In this document: one piece after another, positions 14,060 through 48,387 of the stretch
Layout: every line of letters begins with the position of its first letter
Numbering within the stretch: position 1 is the stretch's first letter
Assembly: GCA_016204465.1 (NCBI GenBank)
Contig: JACQKQ010000036.1
Span: 1-48,387, forward strand
Direction of reading: 5' to 3'
DNA: 48,387 bases
Source: Candidatus Levyibacteriota bacterium
GTDB lineage: Bacteria; Patescibacteriota; Microgenomatia; Levybacterales; UBA12049
Notes under the pieces: generated by a model
Told to the model about the DNA's origin: nothing
The model's database searches: none
What the model saw: only the letters and a program-made list of their open reading frames with translations
Translations under genes and position numbers: made by a program

Positions 14060-14068
14060 TTGACTTTG

Positions 14069-14141
14069 CGCGCTCGGAGAGAATCGAACTCTCAACCCCT
14101 AGTTCCGAAGACTAGTGCTCTATCCGTTAAGCTACGAGCGC
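14069..14141 (-). tRNA. tRNA-Arg(TCG)
   Basis: Reverse complement GCGCTCG...CTAGT-CTTCGGA-ACTAG...CGAGCGC-G. Confidence 0.93.
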
Positions 14142-14184: not shown

Positions 14185-14260
14185 GGGCCGCTAGCTCAAC
14201 TGGCAGAGCAATTCCCTCTTAAGGAATAGGTTACAGGTTCGACTCCTGTGCGGCTCACCA
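14185..14260 (+). tRNA. tRNA-Lys(CTT) with encoded CCA
   Basis: GGGCCGC/GCGGCTC acceptor, ATTCC-CTCTTAA-GGAAT anticodon arm. Confidence 0.96.
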
Positions 14261-14302
14261 AATGGTTGTAAAACAGAGTGGGGATTAGGTTGATATAACG
14301 TG

Positions 14303-15256
14303 CTAAATGGAACTTTCCATTTTAGGATGGTGGTTATTTATCATTAACCTCAATCCTTTCAGATGGGAAGCTTGTGGAAGCATTGATAGTTCGGTGTGTT
14401 TGCTTCCTATATGTTCTTTGAAATCTTTATTCCTCATTGTTCTAACTACATTTAGGTATACAGAAACATAATAGCCATCTACTTTTGTTTCTTCAGTCTG
14501 TTTTAAATTCTTCTCAGAAATTATTACATATTGTGAATCGATATCTACTCCAATATATTTTCTACCTAAGCGCTTGGCTGCGACAGCAGTTGTACCGGTT
14601 CCAACAAAAGGGTCAAAAACGATATCGCCTTCGTCTGTACTCATCAAAATTAATCTTTCTAACAGGGGTACTGGTAACTGACAAGGATGTTCATCTCTTC
14701 GTTTTTTGTGACGTATTCGATGAATATCAGACCAAACATCAGAAAGAAGCGGACCAAAGCCGTGTGCTTGATCCTTTTTGCCACCATAGTCTTTTAAAAA
14801 TTCTTTGCAGATTCGGCAACGAGGATGGGGGTATCTAATATCATAGAATTTAAAATCTTTATACGTTTTTGATTTCGTGTAATATAAAATCCCGTAGTGG
14901 TTTGGTAAAAGTGTTTTACCCATTGGTGCACCGCCAGAGTCCCAAGAAATCCAATGCCTGAAATAAGCAATTTTATTTAAGTGTTCAGCAAAATGAGTTA
15001 ACCACCGAGGAATGTTATGAACGAAAATTGAACCGCTTGGCTTCGTGATTCTTACCATCTCACTTAACCATTTATTGCACCAATTAAGATATTCTGTTTT
15101 TTCCTTTGTATCTTCGTAATTATTATACTTTTTCTTTAGATTAAAAGGTGGATCAGCAAAAACGATATCCACTGAATTATCAGGGATATTTTCCATAATT
15201 TTTAGACAATCACCTAAAATTATTTTATTTTGAAGGCTCTTAATATTTTTAGTCAT
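14303..15256 (-). CDS. N4/N6 DNA methyltransferase (beta class)
   Basis: DPPF motif IV precedes FDPFVGTGTT motif I; HPCQLP. Confidence 0.92.
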   Translation of the reverse strand: MTKNIKSLQNKIILGDCLKIMENIPDNSVDIVFADPPFNLKKKYNNYEDTKEKTEYLNWCNKWLSEMVRITKPSGSIFVHNIPRWLTHFAEHLNKIAYFRHWISWDSGGAPMGKTLLPNHYGILYYTKSKTYKDFKFYDIRYPHPRCRICKEFLKDYGGKKDQAHGFGPLLSDVWSDIHRIRHKKRRDEHPCQLPVPLLERLILMSTDEGDIVFDPFVGTGTTAVAAKRLGRKYIGVDIDSQYVIISEKNLKQTEETKVDGYYVSVYLNVVRTMRNKDFKEHIGSKHTELSMLPQASHLKGLRLMINNHHPKMESSI

Positions 15257-15258
15257 AG

Positions 15259-16275
15259 TTATTTTAAAAGTATACTTGAAATTAGTTCTTTGAAACGGTT
15301 TAGTTCCTCTTTATGAAAAGTAAAAACATCATCATATGCGCCAACCATTCTTTTAAGATCATTTTTCCTAACATACCAACCAATACCATCTACAAAACCG
15401 ATAAATAAAGCTTTGGGGTAATATTTTTTAATCAATCGAGCAATATTAATTTCAGTTTTGGCCTTATCACCCTGTCCAGAAGAGGTAGTTACAACATAGG
15501 ATGATTCGATAATAAGAATAGGTTTTCTTTGATCAGGAATAATAAAATCCATTGTACGTTTTTCTTCGTCGAGCACACCGACAAGTTTTTTAAGATCGCC
15601 GGAAACAAAGGGTATTTTCAATTCTTCCAAACCTTTTCTTACAAGCTCTGCTGGATTTCTTTCACTTTTACCAGAATACGAACCCTTTTCTTTATACCGG
15701 ATTAAAGTATCAACTAAGGATTCTATTTTAAATTCTAGTTTTTCAACACTAAGTTTTTTGAGTTCAAATAATGGTAATGCTTCTGTTAAAGAAGGCACTG
15801 TGGATCCTTCGAAGAATATATTTACAAGCCCCTTAGCAAAATTTTCATTCGATTTTATCAATCCTGCTATTTTGTTATCGCCCCATTCGCTTACTCCTCG
15901 TTCGCTAATTTCTTCCACTTCTGTTGGCCATTTATTTTTTAAAGTTAATTTGTTTAACTCTTTATCATCAATAACTCTAACAAGGGTTATTAAGCGTTTT
16001 AAGTATTCATTTGAAATACCAGTTAAAGCCAATAACGCTCTAAGCCCGTTCTCTTTATTTCTAATAAGCTCAACGAGAAAATCTCTTTTAAGACCATCCG
16101 TAGTAACCTTGTTTCTTAAAACCAATAAGGTTTCTTTGATTGATGATATATAACCTTCGTATTTTTCCTCAAAATCTCGATCATAGAGATAAAAAGTATT
16201 TTTATTTATCACCCGTTTAAACTTTAATTCTGTTGCGGGTTTTGAAATGTTAAGCATATTATTTTGCATTCTCAA
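15259..16275 (-). CDS. Type II restriction endonuclease, DpnII-like
   Basis: Lies between two MTases; MDFIIPD...IESSY PD-(D/E)XK-like core and FIGFVDGIGW; start may be 16257. Confidence 0.7.
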   Translation of the reverse strand: MRMQNNMLNISKPATELKFKRVINKNTFYLYDRDFEEKYEGYISSIKETLLVLRNKVTTDGLKRDFLVELIRNKENGLRALLALTGISNEYLKRLITLVRVIDDKELNKLTLKNKWPTEVEEISERGVSEWGDNKIAGLIKSNENFAKGLVNIFFEGSTVPSLTEALPLFELKKLSVEKLEFKIESLVDTLIRYKEKGSYSGKSERNPAELVRKGLEELKIPFVSGDLKKLVGVLDEEKRTMDFIIPDQRKPILIIESSYVVTTSSGQGDKAKTEINIARLIKKYYPKALFIGFVDGIGWYVRKNDLKRMVGAYDDVFTFHKEELNRFKELISSILLK

Positions 16276-17509
16276 AAATTAAAATATATTCTTCTTTCAT
16301 TGTATTTTGTAAGCCTTTTATTGGCTTCAAAATCTCCCATAGGAATTTAAACCCTTGTATCTTAGCTAATTCTTTAATTTTTGATTCTAGTCTTACTCCC
16401 TTCGTTTGTATGTCGTTAGTTCCAACAATAAAAATGATTTTAGCACTCTTTTTAGTAACCCTTTTTAGTTCATCTAAGACTTTATCTAGCATCTTAAAAT
16501 AAAGTTCTAATTTTTCACTAATTTCTCTACCATTTAATCCTATCATATTTTCTTTTAGTTTGGTTAGTTCGTAGCCGAGATATTCCAACTGCGGTTTATC
16601 GTTATCAACATAATCAATTGCGAAAGAGTATGGTGGCGAGGTTATCACTCCGTCAACACTATCATTCTCCAAAGGCAATGATAACGCACTACCTTTAATG
16701 ATTTGACTCTCTCCTAATTTTAAACCGAGTTTTTCTTTAGCAGATTGAAAATTCTTAATGGTGGAAATGTATCTATTTAATACAATAGGAAAGAGAATAT
16801 TTAACGATTTTGCGCTTCTGCGAGCAAAACCCATTGCGTCAAGATAGGCCAATAAAGCGATTTCATAATAGGGTCTATTTGTATCTTTACTATCTTTTAT
16901 GAAATAATCAGGTACTATTCGCTTATTTAGTTTTTCAAAAATCTTCTTACGGTCTTTAATTATCCGATCAAGTTTCTTGTTATCGAGGTTTAGCGCAAAA
17001 GTCTTAACTTTTCCCATTAAACAGCAAAATGGGCTTACGTCTACAGCAATTGAATCAATACCTAATAAATTAGCCTCTACCGATAGAGTTGCGCTACCGG
17101 ACATGGGATCAAGTACTACATTACCAGGATGAATGCCTATTATATTTAGCAATGCCCTGATCACCTGTGGGTGAAATTTACCTCTATATGGAAAAAGACT
17201 GTGTGTAGCGTATCCGGTAGAATACTTGCCGTTTAAGAAAAATGCCTTCGTGCGTAGTGAACTATTTTGGTGTATTTCTTCTAAATTTTGGAGATTACAT
17301 GTTTGATAATGAATAGTTTGAATTCCATCTACTGATTTAAAATAGGCGCTACGTCTAATCAAATCCTGTTTCTTGAGATTTTCATATTCCCAAAGAGCCA
17401 AATTTAACTCAAAAATTTCATCGGTTCCATCGATCAACTGATAGTTTGCTGGAAAGAATTTCTCGTTTATTGATTTAAAGTTCTGCATTATTTTTTTATC
17501 AAATTTCAA
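16259..17509 (-). CDS. DNA methyltransferase, likely N4-cytosine
   Basis: YRGKFHPQ, DPMSGSAT (motif I) then TSPPY (motif IV). Confidence 0.88.
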   Translation of the reverse strand: MKFDKKIMQNFKSINEKFFPANYQLIDGTDEIFELNLALWEYENLKKQDLIRRSAYFKSVDGIQTIHYQTCNLQNLEEIHQNSSLRTKAFFLNGKYSTGYATHSLFPYRGKFHPQVIRALLNIIGIHPGNVVLDPMSGSATLSVEANLLGIDSIAVDVSPFCCLMGKVKTFALNLDNKKLDRIIKDRKKIFEKLNKRIVPDYFIKDSKDTNRPYYEIALLAYLDAMGFARRSAKSLNILFPIVLNRYISTIKNFQSAKEKLGLKLGESQIIKGSALSLPLENDSVDGVITSPPYSFAIDYVDNDKPQLEYLGYELTKLKENMIGLNGREISEKLELYFKMLDKVLDELKRVTKKSAKIIFIVGTNDIQTKGVRLESKIKELAKIQGFKFLWEILKPIKGLQNTMKEEYILIFENAK

Positions 17510-17561
17510 TGCCTTTTTTTATATAAAATTAATTTTAGTTGGAGATTGTAGCTGTACTTTA

Positions 17562-17669
17562 TTATACATCTTTCAAACCAAACAAATAAGCAAATTCAGA
17601 GTTTAGACCTTCAGATAGGAATAAATTGATAAATTCTCGCAGTCTGTTTAAGATACTAAGCGGATTACA
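17562..17669 (-). repeat. Dispersed cassette-boundary repeat, copy A
   Basis: Reverse complement encodes CNPLSILNRLREFINLFLSEGLNSEFAYLFGLKDV*; 68/84 nt identical to copy D over the core (manual count). Confidence 0.9.
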
Positions 17670-17677
17670 CTAGGCTT

Positions 17678-18622
17678 TCAATCTCCTCGAGTAAATTTAC
17701 TCATAAACCTATTTTTTCCTCTATCAATGACAATGTGATCGAATAGAAGTTGACTTGCAAAATAAATAGCGCGTTCAACATCCGGAGAAACTGCTCGTAA
17801 ATCACTTAGCGCGGCGTTTGCTACTGACGTTAAAAAATGTGTAGAGTAAGGAGCAGTATTTGCTAATAATCCAAAGAGATTAGTTCCATCAGGAGAATTT
17901 TGTGCTGCGTTAAAGAAATTTTCAAATTCCCCATGATCATGTAAAGTCGCATGTACTAAGTTCCCGTCTGTAATTTTGTCATCAAGAACATCCTGCAAGT
18001 CATCAGGGAGTTGAAGCGCTACAATGCCAATCGCTTCAAATCCATCTTCTACTCGAGTTCGTACACTTTGATTTGTACTAGCTAAAATATTCCCCATAGC
18101 AGCTACTTTTCGCATCAGTAACAAACTTGAATCCTTTCTGTAGGCGAATGCGTCAGCAAAAGATGCAGTCTCTGTCCATCCATGTTGTCTTTCAAAAGCA
18201 GCATATGAGCGCCTTCTCAAATCAGCAAGTTCATAAAGAACCTCTCTTTTTTGCTCTGGACTAATTCGAAAGTCTGAAACAGCTTTTACCAAACGACTTT
18301 GCGATGGGCCAATTGCTTGTTTTGTTTCGCTCCAATTAGGAAAACTATTTGCGTTATCAATCAAATCATCAAAAAATCGTGCATATTCCCATAAATAGGA
18401 AATAGCTGGATATGCGTAGGCCGGGATAGACTTATCGGACAATTTACCAAAAAGCGGTACGAGAAGAGAGCCAACCATATACCATCTTACTCCTTTTTTT
18501 GCCAGTGCTTCTCTTGACTGAATATGTAACGATCCTACTTCACCAACATATCGTAGGAAGGAAATTCCTGTGCTAAATTTTCCGTCGGGATTGAATAAGC
18601 CTATTCTTTCGCCTTTTTTCAT
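17678..18622 (-). CDS. Isoprenoid-synthase-fold protein (polyprenyl synthase / class I terpene synthase-like)
   Basis: Two Asp-rich motifs, FFDDLID and LQLPDDLQD; all-alpha character. Confidence 0.6.
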   Translation of the reverse strand: MKKGERIGLFNPDGKFSTGISFLRYVGEVGSLHIQSREALAKKGVRWYMVGSLLVPLFGKLSDKSIPAYAYPAISYLWEYARFFDDLIDNANSFPNWSETKQAIGPSQSRLVKAVSDFRISPEQKREVLYELADLRRRSYAAFERQHGWTETASFADAFAYRKDSSLLLMRKVAAMGNILASTNQSVRTRVEDGFEAIGIVALQLPDDLQDVLDDKITDGNLVHATLHDHGEFENFFNAAQNSPDGTNLFGLLANTAPYSTHFLTSVANAALSDLRAVSPDVERAIYFASQLLFDHIVIDRGKNRFMSKFTRGD

Positions 18623-18678: not shown

Positions 18679-19692
18679 ATGAATCGGAAAACGAAGATTA
18701 TTTGTACTATTGGACCGGCATGTGAGTCGGAAGACATGCTTGATCAACTAATATCAGTCGGCATGGATATTGCGAGGTTTAATTTTTCGCACGCTTCGTA
18801 TGATGGTTTTGTTAAGACGCATGACCTTATCAAGATGCTAGGTCAGAAGTATAAGAAAAACATTGAGATTCTTGTTGATTTGCAGGGCCCGCGAATTCGC
18901 GTTGGGCAAATGCCAAAGGAAGGCCAAGAGCTTAAAGAAGGTACAACGGTAGTATTTACATCAGATAAAGAAAACAAAAGCGCAATCTATATTGATGATC
19001 CATACATTTCGCAAAACATTCAAATAGGCCATCCCATTTATTTATCAAACGGTGAAATCGAGCTAATGGTTATACGTAAAAAAAATGAAGAAATTGAGGC
19101 AAAAGTCATAAGAGGCGGCATCCTCTATTCGAGAAAAGCAGTGAACGTGCCGGAAACCGTACTCACAACAACAGGACTTACACAAAAAGATGTCAAAGAT
19201 ATATGGTTTGTGCTTCCGTTTGGCATTGACTACATTGGCCAATCATTTATTAAAAATGCGCACGATATTTTTAAGCTTAGGCAACTTTTGGGCAACGCGA
19301 AGGCAAAAATCATTGCAAAAATCGAGACAAAACAGTCGGTACACAATATTGACTGGATTGTCCAAGTTGCTGATTTAATAATGATTGCCAGAGGCGATTT
19401 AGGCATTGAACTGCCGCTTGAAGATTTGCCGCTTATTCAAAAGGATATTATTAACAGGGCAAATATAGAAGGAAAACCTGCTATTGTAGCTACGCAAATG
19501 CTGTCAAGCATGGTAAATCACCACAGACCAACAAGAGCAGAAATTTCAGATGTAGCAAACGCAGTGTTAGACGGCGCTTGGGGAGTTATGCTATCGGAAG
19601 AAACTGCGTTTGGAAAATATCCCGTAGAGGCCGTATGTTACCTGCATAAAACAATTTCAAAAATAGAAGAATTTCAGGCTCGTATTACTTAA
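18679..19692 (+). CDS. pyk: Pyruvate kinase (A+B domains only)
   Basis: KIICTIGPA, RFNFSH, DLQGPRIR, IARGDLGIE, ATQML, RAEISDVANAV. Confidence 0.95.
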   Translation: MNRKTKIICTIGPACESEDMLDQLISVGMDIARFNFSHASYDGFVKTHDLIKMLGQKYKKNIEILVDLQGPRIRVGQMPKEGQELKEGTTVVFTSDKENKSAIYIDDPYISQNIQIGHPIYLSNGEIELMVIRKKNEEIEAKVIRGGILYSRKAVNVPETVLTTTGLTQKDVKDIWFVLPFGIDYIGQSFIKNAHDIFKLRQLLGNAKAKIIAKIETKQSVHNIDWIVQVADLIMIARGDLGIELPLEDLPLIQKDIINRANIEGKPAIVATQMLSSMVNHHRPTRAEISDVANAVLDGAWGVMLSEETAFGKYPVEAVCYLHKTISKIEEFQARIT

Positions 19693-43026: not shown

Positions 43027-43497
43027 ATGAAAATACAAATAAATCTCATTGTTTTTGGTTTGGTAATACTATTTATTTCAGTAGCTATATTATATTTTAC
43101 ACAAGGAAAAAGTAGTGAAAAGGCGCTACAGCAAGTTCCTCAAGTACAAACTGCAAATCAAAATGAATTAGAGACCCAGACATCTCAAGTTGAAAATATA
43201 ACGATCAAGGTAACACCACAGGATATTTCCAAGTCTTCCAGTGAGTGGAAATTTGAAGTTACCCTGGACACTCACTCCGGGTCCTTGGATCAGGATCTGC
43301 AAAAAACTTCAGTTCTTTTGGATAATAAGGGAAATCAATATAAACCTACTGCATGGGAAGGCAGCCCCGCTGGTGGACATCATCGAGAAGGGGTATTAAA
43401 GTTTAGACCAATCAGCTCAACTACCATTGAGTTAAAGATTATTGATTTTGTGGGTTCTCAATCCCAAATTTTCAAATGGACACTTAAAACTGACTAA
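43027..43497 (+). CDS. Uncharacterised exported His-motif protein
   Basis: N-terminal TM; LDTHSGSL and GGHHREG motifs. Confidence 0.8.
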   Translation: MKIQINLIVFGLVILFISVAILYFTQGKSSEKALQQVPQVQTANQNELETQTSQVENITIKVTPQDISKSSSEWKFEVTLDTHSGSLDQDLQKTSVLLDNKGNQYKPTAWEGSPAGGHHREGVLKFRPISSTTIELKIIDFVGSQSQIFKWTLKTD

Positions 43498-43574
43498 GTG
43501 AATTTTTCAAATTATTCCTGTCTGACGGTCTAAACTCCGAATTTGCATATTTATTTGGCTTAAAAAATGTCCAA
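43491..43574 (+). repeat. Dispersed cassette-boundary repeat, copy B
   Basis: Encodes LSEFFKLFLSDGLNSEFAYLFGLKNV; the stop of the last copper-cluster gene lies inside it. Confidence 0.88.
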
Positions 43575-43608
43575 GTAAGTACATCAGGAATAAAGATCAT
43601 TTGCGGAA

Positions 43609-46392: not shown

Positions 46393-46443
46393 CTTGCGCT
46401 TAGTATAGCAGTGGGTATAATCTTGCGTCAAGCTGAATTTCTG

Positions 46444-46551
46444 TGTGAGCCCAACGATACATTGCACAGACTTCGAGAATTCTTCAAATTATTCCTTTCT
46501 AATGGCCTAAACTCTGAATTTGCTTATCAGTTTGGCCTAAAAGATGTATAG
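46444..46551 (+). repeat. Dispersed cassette-boundary repeat, copy C
   Basis: Encodes CEPNDTLHRLREFFKLFLSNGLNSEFAYQFGLKDV*; 71/84 nt identical to copy D (manual count). Confidence 0.9.
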
Positions 46552-46627
46552 CAAAGTACAATAGCTTTCTTTAACTAATTTTAACTATAAGGCATTGACA
46601 AATGGTCTTATTTTTGGTTAAATACAC

Positions 46628-48099: not shown

Positions 48100-48158
48100 T
48101 TGCAAAGTCAATAAATCTTCTTTTAACTTCTTTCATTTATTTTTAACAATTATTAACT

Positions 48159-48266
48159 GGTTATCCGGACGATACTCTCCACAGACTGCGAGAATTCGTT
48201 GAATTATTCCTATCTGATAGCCTAAACTCTGAATTTGCTTATACATTTGGCCTAAAAAATGCATAA
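48159..48266 (+). repeat. Dispersed cassette-boundary repeat, copy D
   Basis: Encodes GYPDDTLHRLREFVELFLSDSLNSEFAYTFGLKNA*. Confidence 0.9.
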
Positions 48267-48387
48267 TAAAGTGCATTAACCTCTTTTTATTTTTACAAAT
48301 TTGTTATGATGATTACATTGATTGACTATACTATTTTGGGGTATGGCAAAATATATGGCAATATGGTAATATATTTATGAATATATC

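Follow-up and report, generated by a model that had tools for sequence, protein, structure and literature searches.

Gene content of the tRNA-Lys locus

In the window (the whole stretch of DNA analysed, 48,387 nt), three restriction-modification (R-M) genes begin directly behind a tRNA-Lys gene and are closed on the far side by one copy of a repeat, three further copies of which lie near the other end of the window. The features on which the analysis draws are the following.

14068-14141, minus strand: tRNA-Arg(tcg), divergent partner of tRNA-Lys
14185-14260, plus strand: tRNA-Lys(ctt), intact, CCA encoded, 66 bits to RF00005; cassette anchor, its last ~10 nt (GCGGCTCACCA) being the putative att core on the tRNA side
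14261-14309, no strand: P2-type tRNA-proximal cassette end, ~49 nt, AATGGTTGTAAAACAGAGTGGGGATTAGGTTGATATAACGTGCTAAATG
14303-15256, minus strand: M1, N6/N4 DNA methyltransferase (MTase), 317 aa; PF01555, E 7.8e-51
15259-16275, minus strand: DpnII-family type II restriction endonuclease (REase), 336-338 aa; PF04556, 29.5 bits (cut-off 23)
16259-17509, minus strand: M2, second DNA methyltransferase, 409-416 aa; UPF0020 and N6_N4
17524-17669, minus strand: repeat copy A, the distal end module, which closes the operon and reads toward tRNA-Lys
17669 to 17565, minus strand: start-less 35-codon frame of copy A, CNPLSILNRLREFINLFLSEGLNSEFAYLFGLKDV; stop at 17564-17562
17553-17568: short hairpin of copy A (TGTA/TACA)
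17640-17649: arm of copy A, CAGTCTGTTT
17660-17669: tRNA-like outer edge of copy A, GCGGATTACA
17678-18622, minus strand: lineage-specific ORF, 314 aa, in the distal flank between the repeat edge and pyk
18679-19692, plus strand: pyruvate kinase (pyk; barrel domain only), conserved flank with orthologues in relatives; PF00224, E 1e-102
43468-43595, plus strand: repeat copy B, its 5' part decayed and its frame broken by two stops
46445-46572, plus strand: repeat copy C, adjoining the 5' end of a UPF0182 gene
48115-48157, no strand: P3-type tRNA-proximal end motif (…CTTTCATTTATTTTTAACAATTATTAAC), directly upstream of copy D
48160-48287, plus strand: repeat copy D, 100 nt short of the contig end

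The Arg(tcg)/Lys(ctt) tRNA pair is a conserved landmark of the locus and is present in many genomes that carry the cassette family described below. The tRNA-Lys gene is intact and regenerated, and foreign DNA of low GC content starts at 14261 (GC 0.31-0.32 at positions 15-17 kb, ~0.40 in the flanks), which places the islet directly at a tRNA 3' end, as Islander islands are; the integrase gene that Islander looks for inside an island is absent. The stop codon of M1 (14303-14305) falls within the P2 end module, so that the first R-M stop begins 43 nt past the tRNA-Lys end. Between the tRNA and copy A there are three ORFs, all of them R-M genes, with room for no other and no match to a recombinase family, and PF00589 has no match anywhere in the 48,387-nt window. 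The sequence-only reading had described an MTase-REase-MTase set 43 bp from the tRNA, closed by copy A reading toward it and free of any integrase, and the coordinates and ORF content confirm that description.

The operon combines a PF04556 endonuclease with cognate MTases, as DpnII-family systems do, and the closest named REase homologues are annotated as DpnII-family endonucleases. It differs from DpnII-type R-M in its M-R-M order and in its MTases, which are both of the N6_N4 type, with no Dam-like D12 enzyme; the M2 call on Logan contig L122 has 409 aa. Planctomycetota, Bacteroidota, Ignavibacteria and other MAGs have REase homologues that are 80-88% identical, and within the order just one other genome among 245 has the REase. 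The relative G112 carries the same M-R-M module, at 77% nucleotide identity over 14414-17504, inside an island with a large serine recombinase (LSR) at tRNA-Pro; as the homology begins only at 14414, the last ~37 codons of M1 are specific to the islet cassette. Because of the low GC content, the cross-phylum REase identity and the G112 copy, the module is best read as horizontally acquired foreign cargo, and its genes would work as ordinary defence cargo in this genome. The sequence-only reading had expected the R-M genes of relatives to accompany copy A and to lie at tRNAs. The first expectation fails in G112, which has the genes without the repeat, but the second holds, since they are there the cargo of another tRNA-integrated element; the case shows exchangeable cargo and does not refute the islet's membership of a cassette family.

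On the distal side, the 314-aa ORF has no Pfam or NCBIfam match, was not found in 40 relatives and is possibly older accessory DNA. In the relative G009, the corresponding interval from a repeat copy to pyk holds an unrelated MTase-like gene.

The repeat and its 35-codon frame

Copy A is 78-84% identical to copies B, C and D, and with a fifth copy (E) on contig C19 the 881-kb assembly holds five. The conserved unit spans ~120 nt, of which the inner part comprises the 35-codon frame, its stop and the short hairpin. The frame bears the coding signature of purifying selection. Its start codon is not conserved, a stop usually stands just upstream, and its carriers among 1.84 billion proteins are only short ORFs with unrelated N-termini. 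The repeat matches no Rfam family, folds weakly (-5.8 kcal/mol consensus, one compensatory pair) and has no consensus fold. A gene on the same strand often ends directly before it (as at copies A, B and D and in G009), and the juxtaposition of copy C with a UPF0182 gene is seen again in G038:C26.

Selection on the frame, the hairpin at its end and the frequent position behind a same-strand gene would suit an independent small gene, or a terminator or regulatory element, that lies near tRNAs by chance, with the R-M cluster as an unrelated insertion. We consider this very improbable indeed: the start codon is not conserved and the frame is usually stopped just upstream, carriers share no N-terminus, there is neither an Rfam match nor a consensus fold, and the tRNA linkage and orientation in 28 of 28 loci and the stacking of proximal ends, both given below, are unexpected for a free-standing gene.

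Two further repeat classes were ruled out. A MITE- or RPE-like peptide-coding repeat does not fit copies that lack terminal inverted repeats and are intergenic, stop-bounded and oriented to tRNAs, with a conserved terminal stop. An integron attC cassette does not fit a weakly folding repeat whose arrays are headed by a tRNA and whose genomes keep their tyrosine recombinases far from it.

Repeat-capped cassettes behind tRNA genes

Within the order, the repeat occurs in 39 of 245 genomes and 31 of 103 genera, and GTDB-wide at 69 loci in Levy-, Davies-, Gottesman- and Blackburnbacteria. All repeats of a locus share one orientation at ~100 loci of these four groups, and arrays, which reach 5 copies, are always of a single orientation. 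At ~26 loci of the order, a tRNA 3' end faces a co-oriented repeat or array 0.8-8 kb away; among the GTDB-wide loci that hold a downstream tRNA, the first such tRNA lies on the opposite strand with its 3' end to the repeat in 28 of 28 (25 are tRNA-Lys). tRNA-Lys(ctt) itself anchors repeat-capped cassettes in G023, G188, G194, G124 and several Daviesbacteria. The same Arg/Lys-ctt locus carries unrelated cargo in five genera: the R-M genes in this genome, a 435-aa exported protein in G023, a phosphatase in G188, MTase, NTase and HisRS-like genes in G124, and TA, LigT and GIY-YIG genes in G194. A census of 116 cargo ORFs counted NYN (11), Fic (10), XRE antitoxins (7), BrnT (4) and Gp49 (4), with no recombinase family among the 25 commonest cargo families listed, and no LSR lies inside any of 45 repeat-bounded segments surveyed. 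Relatives have no DNA similarity at the locus outside the tRNAs, and no empty-site allele was obtained from them; Logan contigs break at both cassette ends.

The tRNA-proximal ends recur as well. The ~49-nt P2 end is also found 3' of tRNA-Lys in G124, G092 and locus L170, in all cases with unrelated cargo, and just outside a repeat edge in G165; the P3 motif lies 3' of tRNA-Lys, Val and Glu in Daviesbacteria loci. Conserved proximal ends outside repeat edges are what junctions between stacked units would produce, and in stacked units repeat, core and proximal end do meet in precise junctions. The P3 motif at 48115-48157 reads as the junction of two stacked cassettes. The tRNA expected to anchor copy D would lie on the minus strand past the contig end and is unassembled, and tRNA-Lys(ttt) is missing from the assembly. 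The common layout, the P3 motif upstream of copy D and the variable cargo support the earlier proposal that the islet is an integrase-less member of the system that forms the 43-48 kb array.

Once the two ends of the islet are joined, AAACAGAGTG (14271-14280) is an inverted copy of CAGTCTGTTT (17640-17649) around the core. The joined ends read CAGTCTGTTT..GCGGATCACCA..AAACAGACTG, an apparent dyad around a tRNA-like core, and are candidates for the two arms of an attachment site. The same dyad stands at a natural junction in G165 and is missing from the other proximal-end types.

The sequence-only reading had taken the outer edge of the repeat for a decayed tRNA-derived att core, citing strings that were all found (tRNA-Lys complement TGGTGAGCC, copy C GTGTGAGCC, copy D TGGTTATCC). 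As a chance test within the genome, every repeat edge was scored against all 37 of its tRNAs. tRNA-Lys ties for best with copy A (7/10) and is best for copies D and E (8/10); copy C fits Val and Glu better (9/10) than tRNA-Lys, and copy B is decayed. At 7/10, GCGGATTACA matches GCGGCTCACCA no better than it matches other tRNAs of the genome, so the 7-nt match is at chance when taken by itself and significance comes from cross-genome data only. There, the alignment of many repeat edges to tRNA 3' ends, which the same reading had proposed, gave 282 matches for edges paired with their own tRNA against 250.6 ± 7.4 for permuted pairs (0/5000), and p ~0.016 within Lys alone. The edge co-varies with the type of the anchoring tRNA (Lys versus Gly). 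Edge and tRNA share a short identity of ~5-11 nt, which is 11/11 in G162 (AGCCGGCTCAC), and in G038 25/30 positions agree across the tRNA end and its flank. These comparisons support assigning the outer edge to the att-core side, where the repeat matches the tRNA 3' end; the edge does track its own tRNA, and is better named a tRNA-matching attachment core than a "decayed tRNA".

Both cassette ends keep 80-90% nucleotide identity across genera while the cargo differs. Such conservation might mean that no site-specific step operates at present. The 120-nt repeat and, opposite it, the tRNA with its proximal end would then be portable homology arms, homologous recombination with DNA taken up would exchange the cargo between strains, and the att-like edge would be a relic. 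Many repeat-bearing genomes are without any serine recombinase, as this would allow, and selection on the repeat frame would preserve an arm. However, 50-120 nt at 80% identity make poor substrates for homologous recombination, and the precise stacked junctions and the covariation of edge and tRNA type need site-specific insertion at least at the origin; we regard cargo swapping of this kind as unlikely.

Serine recombinases at the same tRNA genes

An LSR of the type found in G012 is present in 112 of the 245 genomes of the order. The LSR ORF runs a median of 60 nt into an antisense tRNA in 18 of 19 loci, and the tRNAs entered include Lys-ctt, Lys-ttt, Glu-ttc, Glu-ctc, Val and Ile. At G012:C3, the core GTGACCC lies between the LSR 3' end and the repeat and abuts both; at G019:C36 the LSR enters tRNA-Lys(ttt) and has a repeat copy 10.8 kb upstream. 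The link between LSR and repeat comes from this one contiguous junction, the one 12-kb element of G019 and the shared tRNA targets. The islet encodes no LSR (Resolvase + Recombinase + Zn_ribbon_recom) and the genome has no match to the G012 type at E<=1e-30; its only serine recombinase (C11:12836-14404) is 23% identical to that type. Among 20 repeat-bearing genomes tested, 7 are wholly without a serine recombinase, three of them 94-99% complete, so that many cassettes are stranded or else served by another enzyme.

Every genome tested has 1-3 tyrosine recombinases, even those without a serine recombinase, and most have one or two at recurring scores (~1e-44, ~1e-29), which we take to be Xer-like. 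The cassettes could then be integrase-less derivatives of tyrosine-integrase islands, similar to tycheposons or CIMEs, moved in trans by a host tyrosine recombinase as IMEX elements exploit XerCD. tRNA-anchored islands are classically made by tyrosine integrases, which leave a displaced tRNA 3' fragment (PMC4383910), and stacking at a tRNA is the tycheposon model (bioRxiv 10.1101/2020.12.28.424599). Yet no tyrosine recombinase lies in or near any repeat locus, the same two score classes appear in most genomes, repeat-bearing or not, and an edge identity of ~5-11 nt is unlike typical tyrosine-integrase cores. The enzyme seen joined to core and repeat, and entering the same tRNAs, is a serine recombinase. 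A tyrosine origin seems to us quite improbable; the relatives point to a large serine recombinase and not to a classical tyrosine integrase.

The stretch 14261-17669 is probably one recombinase-less cassette at the 3' end of tRNA-Lys(ctt), inserted by an LSR in trans. The islet can be placed as a unit of a widespread repeat-capped family whose most likely mover is a serine recombinase encoded elsewhere, and we infer that the G012-type LSR uses these ends as its sites and that the cassette arrived whole. It would consist of the ~49-nt proximal end (14261-14309), the M-R-M cargo and the ~120-nt distal end (copy A), the two ends corresponding to the two attachment-site arms. Members of the family lie behind tRNA-Lys, -Gly, -Glu, -Val and -Ile across the whole of Microgenomates and would stack by repeated insertion at the tRNA, each newcomer displacing older units outward; the 43-48 kb array of the window is probably such a stack. 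In autonomous elements, the family LSR gene would lie at the tRNA-proximal end and run across the attachment core; in a cassette, the proximal end would stand where the site has the recombinase gene, and the repeat would be the opposite side. Because the assembly is without a family LSR, the islet is probably fixed in this genome unless a helper element arrives.

The 35-codon frame is one base out of the recombinase frame, and the reason for its conservation is therefore unexplained. One conceivable answer, which we hold to be decidedly unlikely, is that it acts as a recombination-state sensor for the LSR. Only a junction of the LSR 3' end with the repeat, as in the excised circle or where a cassette lands before an LSR element (the case in G012), would place the frame downstream of the LSR gene, and its expression could then depend on a -1 slip (GAAAAAAC stands immediately upstream in G012) or on coupled re-initiation. 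The resulting LSR isoform, or small partner, would set directionality and make a separate RDF gene unnecessary, and recombinase-less cassettes, the R-M islet included, would keep the repeat as binding arm and switch.

Comparison with known integrating elements

CPR bacteria (Patescibacteria) have tiny genomes with few recognised mobile elements, and how they acquire defence genes is poorly understood. The islet would be an R-M system that reached a tRNA gene of an ultra-small (Microgenomates/CPR) bacterium in a standard plug-in format. Its cassette family spans several Microgenomates candidate phyla, carries defence and toxin-antitoxin cargo (NYN, Fic, BrnT, HigB-like) and appears dependent on tRNA-3'-targeting serine recombinases with the attachment site in their own gene. 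If this is true, the family amounts to a compact CPR gene-accretion platform, of which we found no earlier description, and could supply serine integrases that target tRNAs and have defined sites of ~50 bp, with a start-less 35-codon frame, itself unexplained, kept by selection within an attachment arm.

tRNA 3' ends are normally the domain of tyrosine integrases. The LSR of the relatives (Resolvase + Recombinase + Zn-ribbon) resembles those of phiC31, Bxb1, A118 and SPbeta (SprA), and the candidate att site, at ~50 bp with a possible partial dyad and a short target identity, would likewise be in keeping with such elements; Bxb1 substrates measure <50 bp (PMC1470463). Unlike in those elements, the targets here are tRNA 3' ends, the attachment core lies in the recombinase gene's own 3' end, so that the protein tail changes on integration, and a conserved 35-codon frame occupies the far arm, a module of 120 nt; the majority of copies are stacking cassettes of 1-4 kb with no recombinase. 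Mx8 intP/intX and the SSV1-type integrases have attP within the integrase gene, whose 3' end is rewritten or split by integration. LSR genes here also span the attachment site, as seen in the ORFs that enter tRNAs, but the enzymes of Mx8 and SSV1 are tyrosine recombinases, whereas here they are serine recombinases and the far-arm frame is out of register with them.

With CIMEs and Islander islands the cassettes share att-type bounds at a regenerated tRNA, a lack of recombination genes of their own and, apparently, site-specific accretion beside the target (PMC4383910 for the island logic). The islet has the att-type ends of an autonomous family without its recombination genes, as a CIME does, because its P2 end and repeat are common to other cassettes and the repeat shares an element with an LSR in G012 and G019. 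What would be the displaced tRNA fragment measures only ~5-11 nt here, however, the parents are presumably serine-recombinase elements, and both ends are long conserved modules common to several CPR orders. The tycheposons of Prochlorococcus likewise stack next to a tRNA, carry defence or niche cargo and inhabit streamlined genomes; a new unit enters their islands on the side nearest the tRNA and displaces older ones outward (bioRxiv 10.1101/2020.12.28.424599). Tycheposons bring tyrosine (or other) recombinases, replication modules and partial-tRNA flanks; the islet has no recombinase and no replication or packaging hallmark module, and the cassettes in general, without a recombinase or replication gene, carry a peptide-coding end module instead.

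An R-M islet between tRNA-Lys and a repeat

The restriction-modification (R-M) islet consists of three ORFs set between tRNA-Lys(ctt) and copy A of a short repeat. The sequence-only reading had proposed this layout, and the coordinates obtained through ARAGORN, Rfam and ORF calling bear it out; every tRNA and repeat string quoted in that reading was found in the window.

Features of the islet and repeat copies in the window
14068-14141, minus strand: tRNA-Arg(tcg) (ARAGORN and Rfam)
14185-14260, plus strand: tRNA-Lys(ctt) (ARAGORN and Rfam)
14303-15256, minus strand: N6_N4 methyltransferase (E 8e-51)
15259-16275, minus strand: DpnII-family endonuclease
16259-17509, minus strand: UPF0020 + N6_N4 methyltransferase
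17524-17669, minus strand: copy A of the ~125-nt repeat
43468-43595, 46445-46572 and 48160-48287, plus strand: further repeat copies B, C and D (78-84% identity)

The islet is real, with precise boundaries at 14261-17669. Only 43 nt separate the tRNA-Lys end from the first stop codon of the R-M operon, and GC content is 0.31-0.32 in the R-M region versus ~0.40 in its surroundings. No recombinase ORF lies between tRNA-Lys and copy A, in keeping with the earlier description of the islet as integrase-less. A fifth repeat copy, E, is found on contig C19 of the same genome, and the 881-kb, 50-contig assembly holds no others. Beyond copy A, a 314-aa ORF at 17678-18622 has no family match and is missing from 40 relatives; in G009, a genome of the order, an unrelated SAM-MTase-like gene occupies the corresponding position between a repeat copy and pyk. 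This position is a second variable slot, whose boundary is not recognisable. ARAGORN detected 37 tRNAs in the whole assembly, and neither tRNA-Lys(ttt) nor tmRNA was found, though smpB is present; the assembly probably has gaps over both genes, which may be breaks caused by repeats, as at the end of the window contig.

A tRNA-facing repeat with a conserved frame

Rfam returned nothing at gathering thresholds across the window, nor at E<=10 for copy A, and RNAalifold gave -5.8 kcal/mol on five repeat copies and no consensus on 16; these blanks and the lack of a convincing fold rule out a structured RNA. A template/variable repeat pair of a diversity-generating retroelement (DGR) was ruled out on inspection, as mismatches are not adenine-specific and copies are kept across genera. 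Instead, the repeat contains a start-less 35-codon frame, (C/G)(E/D)PxxxLxRLxEFFxLFLSDGLNSEFAYxFGLK(D/N)(V/A)*, which an upstream stop closes in most copies; it is open in A, C and D and disrupted in B and E. Among 58 distinct copies, this is the only open frame of the six, variability at codon positions 1/2/3 is 0.159/0.136/0.267, and codon differences of a single base are synonymous in 54% of cases, compared with 17-23% in the other forward frames. By these substitution patterns, the frame is under selection.

A profile of the window copies yielded 34 matches among 1.84 billion proteins. Those with the peptide as a C-terminal tail are all short ORFs (39-167 aa), and their N-termini are unrelated; neither Pfam nor NCBIfam has a family for the peptide. 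Since these carriers are all short and their N-termini unrelated, a full-length parent gene is absent, and we rejected the idea that the repeat is the C-terminus of a long parent protein. Population variants of the repeat also occur: in Logan contig L122 (SRR12113422; positions 1-14, aligned to window 17614-17630), copy A carries a small palindromic insert, CCCCGATTTAATCGGGG, with CTGA duplicated. The insert occupies the same point in the G009 copy (contig C18, 1-160) and in protein P0024, and looks like a mini hairpin element entering the repeat and adding residues such as 'DPDLIGA' to the frame.

The peptide profile matched 39 of the 245 order genomes, covering 31 of 103 genera, and 69 loci in a one-genome-per-species GTDB set that partly overlaps the order set. 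Record names there include Levy-, Davies-, Gottesman- and Blackburnbacteria and 'Microgenomates', with several labels evidently wrong. Many repeat-bearing MAG records are titled 'uncultured Gammaproteobacteria' or 'Woesearchaeota', and their content is the same contigs as those of G009, G041 and G038, all of the Levybacteria order; by this identity, the mistitled records are assigned to Microgenomates.

We fetched the flanks of these loci and annotated tRNAs and repeats. All repeats within a locus share one orientation, in arrays of up to five copies. Reading along the repeats, the first tRNA met is encoded on the other strand and presents its 3' end to the array in all 28 GTDB loci with a downstream tRNA; 25 of these tRNAs are Lys(ctt or ttt), and the rest Val, Ile and Glu. 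Approximately 26 loci of the order set have the same tRNA-facing layout, among them loci where a variant repeat lies behind tRNA-Gly(tcc/ccc/gcc) and others where the tRNA is tRNA-Glu. Exceptions are G161, G087 (contig C5) and G006, with no tRNA within 8-12 kb downstream.

The outer edge of the repeat, read in the tRNA direction, resembles the end of the tRNA it faces: Lys-type edges end …GCGGATCACC or …GGGCTCACA against tRNA …CGGCTCACC(A), and Gly-type edges …CAGGAGCTC(C/A) against …CCCGCTCCA. The proposal that this edge is tRNA-derived had rested on a 7-nt match in the window genome, and that part did not hold. Scored against all 37 tRNAs, copy A reaches 7/10 with Lys, a tie, and copy C 8/10 with Lys versus 9/10 with Val and Glu; because other tRNAs match as well as Lys, the short match alone proves nothing. 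What stands is the pairing of edges with their own tRNAs across loci, seen on aligning many edges to tRNA 3' ends: 282 matches in 26 pairs versus 250.6 +/- 7.4 when permuted (0/5000), and 162 versus 152.3 +/- 4.1 for Lys loci alone (p ~0.016), both tests being inflated by kinship of the loci. Individual edges match further, with 11/11 identity in G162 and 25/30 in G038 over the tRNA end and the next 20 nt. The direction is clear: the repeat edge appears to be the tRNA-matching core of an attachment site.

Exchangeable cargo and serine recombinases

At the Arg(tcg)/Lys(ctt) locus, unrelated genes lie between tRNA and repeat in five genera, and in two of the five the next gene encodes a conserved DUF2079 protein. 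Across 45 repeat-bounded segments, the 116 ORFs gave Pfam counts led by NYN (11), Fic (10), XRE-type HTH (7), and BrnT, Gp49/HigB-like and GIY-YIG (4 each), with no recombinase family among the 25 commonest. The R-M cargo of the window is unusual within the cassette family. For its endonuclease, of a family expected to recognise GATC, homologues at 80-88% identity are known from Planctomycetota, Bacteroidota, Ignavibacteria and others; within the order, it occurs besides the window only in G112 (84% aa; module 77% nt over window 14414-17504). The sequence-only reading had named R-M genes without copy A, or away from tRNAs, as refuting it. G112 fits the first case literally, as the repeat is absent there; the module sits at a tRNA, inside an 11-kb island that splits a Leu-Pro-Gly tRNA cluster (locus L197, contig C1 558000-576000). 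This island also holds a 554-aa ATPase-like gene and a large serine recombinase (LSR; GC 0.48 vs 0.33) with Resolvase, Recombinase and Zn ribbon domains, the ORF of which extends into the antisense strand of tRNA-Pro; no tRNA-Pro mimic was found at the far end. The comparison shows the R-M module to be cargo that tRNA-integrating elements can exchange.

In three genomes, from two families, a repeat copy adjoins the UPF0182 gene at its 5' region (window 46420-46467; G038 contig C26 4540-4580; G008 contig C10), and an identical 23-nt stretch, ATAATCTTGCGTCAAGCTGAAT, is common to the window genome and G038; this 952-aa gene may itself be cassette cargo.

No tyrosine recombinase or integrase was found near any repeat; genomes most often carry two, in two recurring score classes that we take to be Xer-like. 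To test for serine recombinases with the attachment site inside their own gene, we used the G112 LSR as a tblastn query against all fetched loci. In G012 (contig C3), the 3' end of an LSR homologue is followed directly by the core GTGACCC and then a repeat copy; in G029, the homologue extends into the antisense of tRNA-Lys(ctt); and in G019, an LSR of this kind is sited at tRNA-Lys(ttt), with a repeat copy 10.8 kb upstream. Of the 24 best LSR loci, 19 place the 3' end of the gene at a tRNA (Lys-ctt, Lys-ttt, Glu-ttc, Glu-ctc, Val, Arg, Pro, Gln, Ser and Ile), and in 18 of the 19 the ORF extends into the antisense tRNA (median 60 nt). The G012-type family is present in 112 of 245 order genomes; the window genome has no member at E<=1e-30, and 7 of 20 repeat-bearing genomes lack a serine recombinase. 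A separate element of the window genome, beside smpB (C11:7300-15300), carries MazF-like and HTH genes, duplicated tRNA-Ser(tga), and a 522-aa LSR that shares 23% identity with the G012 type. P0007 (166 aa), considered as an LSR C-terminal fragment, was rejected, having only a weak match to the C11 LSR (E 0.06) and no Pfam hit.

We considered whether the repeat encodes an in-frame LSR tail. The core is read by the LSRs of G012, G029 and G019 as GTG-AGC-C and by the conserved repeat frame as (N)GT-GAG-CC, an offset of -1, so that an LSR joined to the repeat would run on in a non-conserved frame and stop after 7-22 repeat codons. Slipping by one base at GAAAAAAC, just ahead of the core in G012, would bring the two frames together; this run is missing from the other LSRs. 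Upstream of the core, openness of the -1 frame (median 20 codons) does not exceed that of the +1 frame (26), and a query of 5.8 billion clusters with a hand-joined G012 LSR, G012 partial tail and window tail recovered no LSR-length protein with a repeat tail. The in-frame tail is therefore unsupported.

Conserved ends and the cassette model

Right after the anchoring tRNAs, a small number of conserved proximal-end types can be told apart. G124, G092 and locus L170 also have the P2 type (window 14261-14309) behind tRNA-Lys, with unrelated cargo, and in G165 its motif lies immediately outside a repeat edge. Within P2, AAACAGAGTG (14271-14280) repeats in inverted form the CAGTCTGTTT of copy A (17640-17649), so joined ends would form a ~50-bp dyad around GCGG(A/C)TCACCA; a dyad with the repeat was seen only for P2 ends. 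A P3-type end lies directly upstream of copy D (~48115-48157), as a stack of proximal end-cargo-repeat units predicts. Elsewhere in the window genome, tRNA-Gly(ccc) is followed by a P1-type end (C30:300-444), and copy E is of the Gly type (C19:444-567, on a 2.9-kb contig); a second cassette site in this genome, Gly-anchored and fragmented by assembly, is probable. Some tRNA-Lys genes (L089/L066 of G194, L037, L061, L060) are followed by one or two perfect palindromes including the tRNA end, and then by another GGCTCAC copy, …GGCTCACCGAGCTCAGCTCGGTGAATAGCCAGCTCAGCTGGCTCAC…; they could represent footprints without cargo, or a fourth proximal-end type.

The simplest available model is one of elements and derived cassettes. 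An autonomous element would run from the tRNA through the LSR 3' end and cargo to the repeat, and islet-type cassettes would have lost the recombinase, retaining the two arms alone. Excision would leave an empty site joining …GGCTCACCA to CTAGGCTTTC… and a circle joining …GCGGATTACA to AATGGTTGTAAAAC…. Neither an empty-site allele nor an excision product was found in relatives or Logan contigs, and DNA similarity in the same-genus pair G023/G236 is limited to tRNAs. Exact-protein look-ups gave contigs terminating at 14297, at 17614/17636 and within the tRNA; contigs L119-L125 came from SRR121133xx/121134xx runs. Every Logan contig that covers the R-M cassette stops at 14297, implying a k-mer branch ~6 nt past the tRNA end, and pyk-side contigs stop at 17636, inside the repeat. 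Such stops fit repeated or polymorphic junctions and are no proof of excision.

We conclude that the islet is a recombinase-less, R-M-carrying member of a repeat-capped cassette family, of which we found no description in the searchable literature. It is neither a classical tyrosine-integrase island nor an integron cassette nor a MITE; it would work like a CIME, a cis-mobilizable element without a recombinase of its own, belonging to a serine-recombinase element with tRNA 3' ends as its targets.
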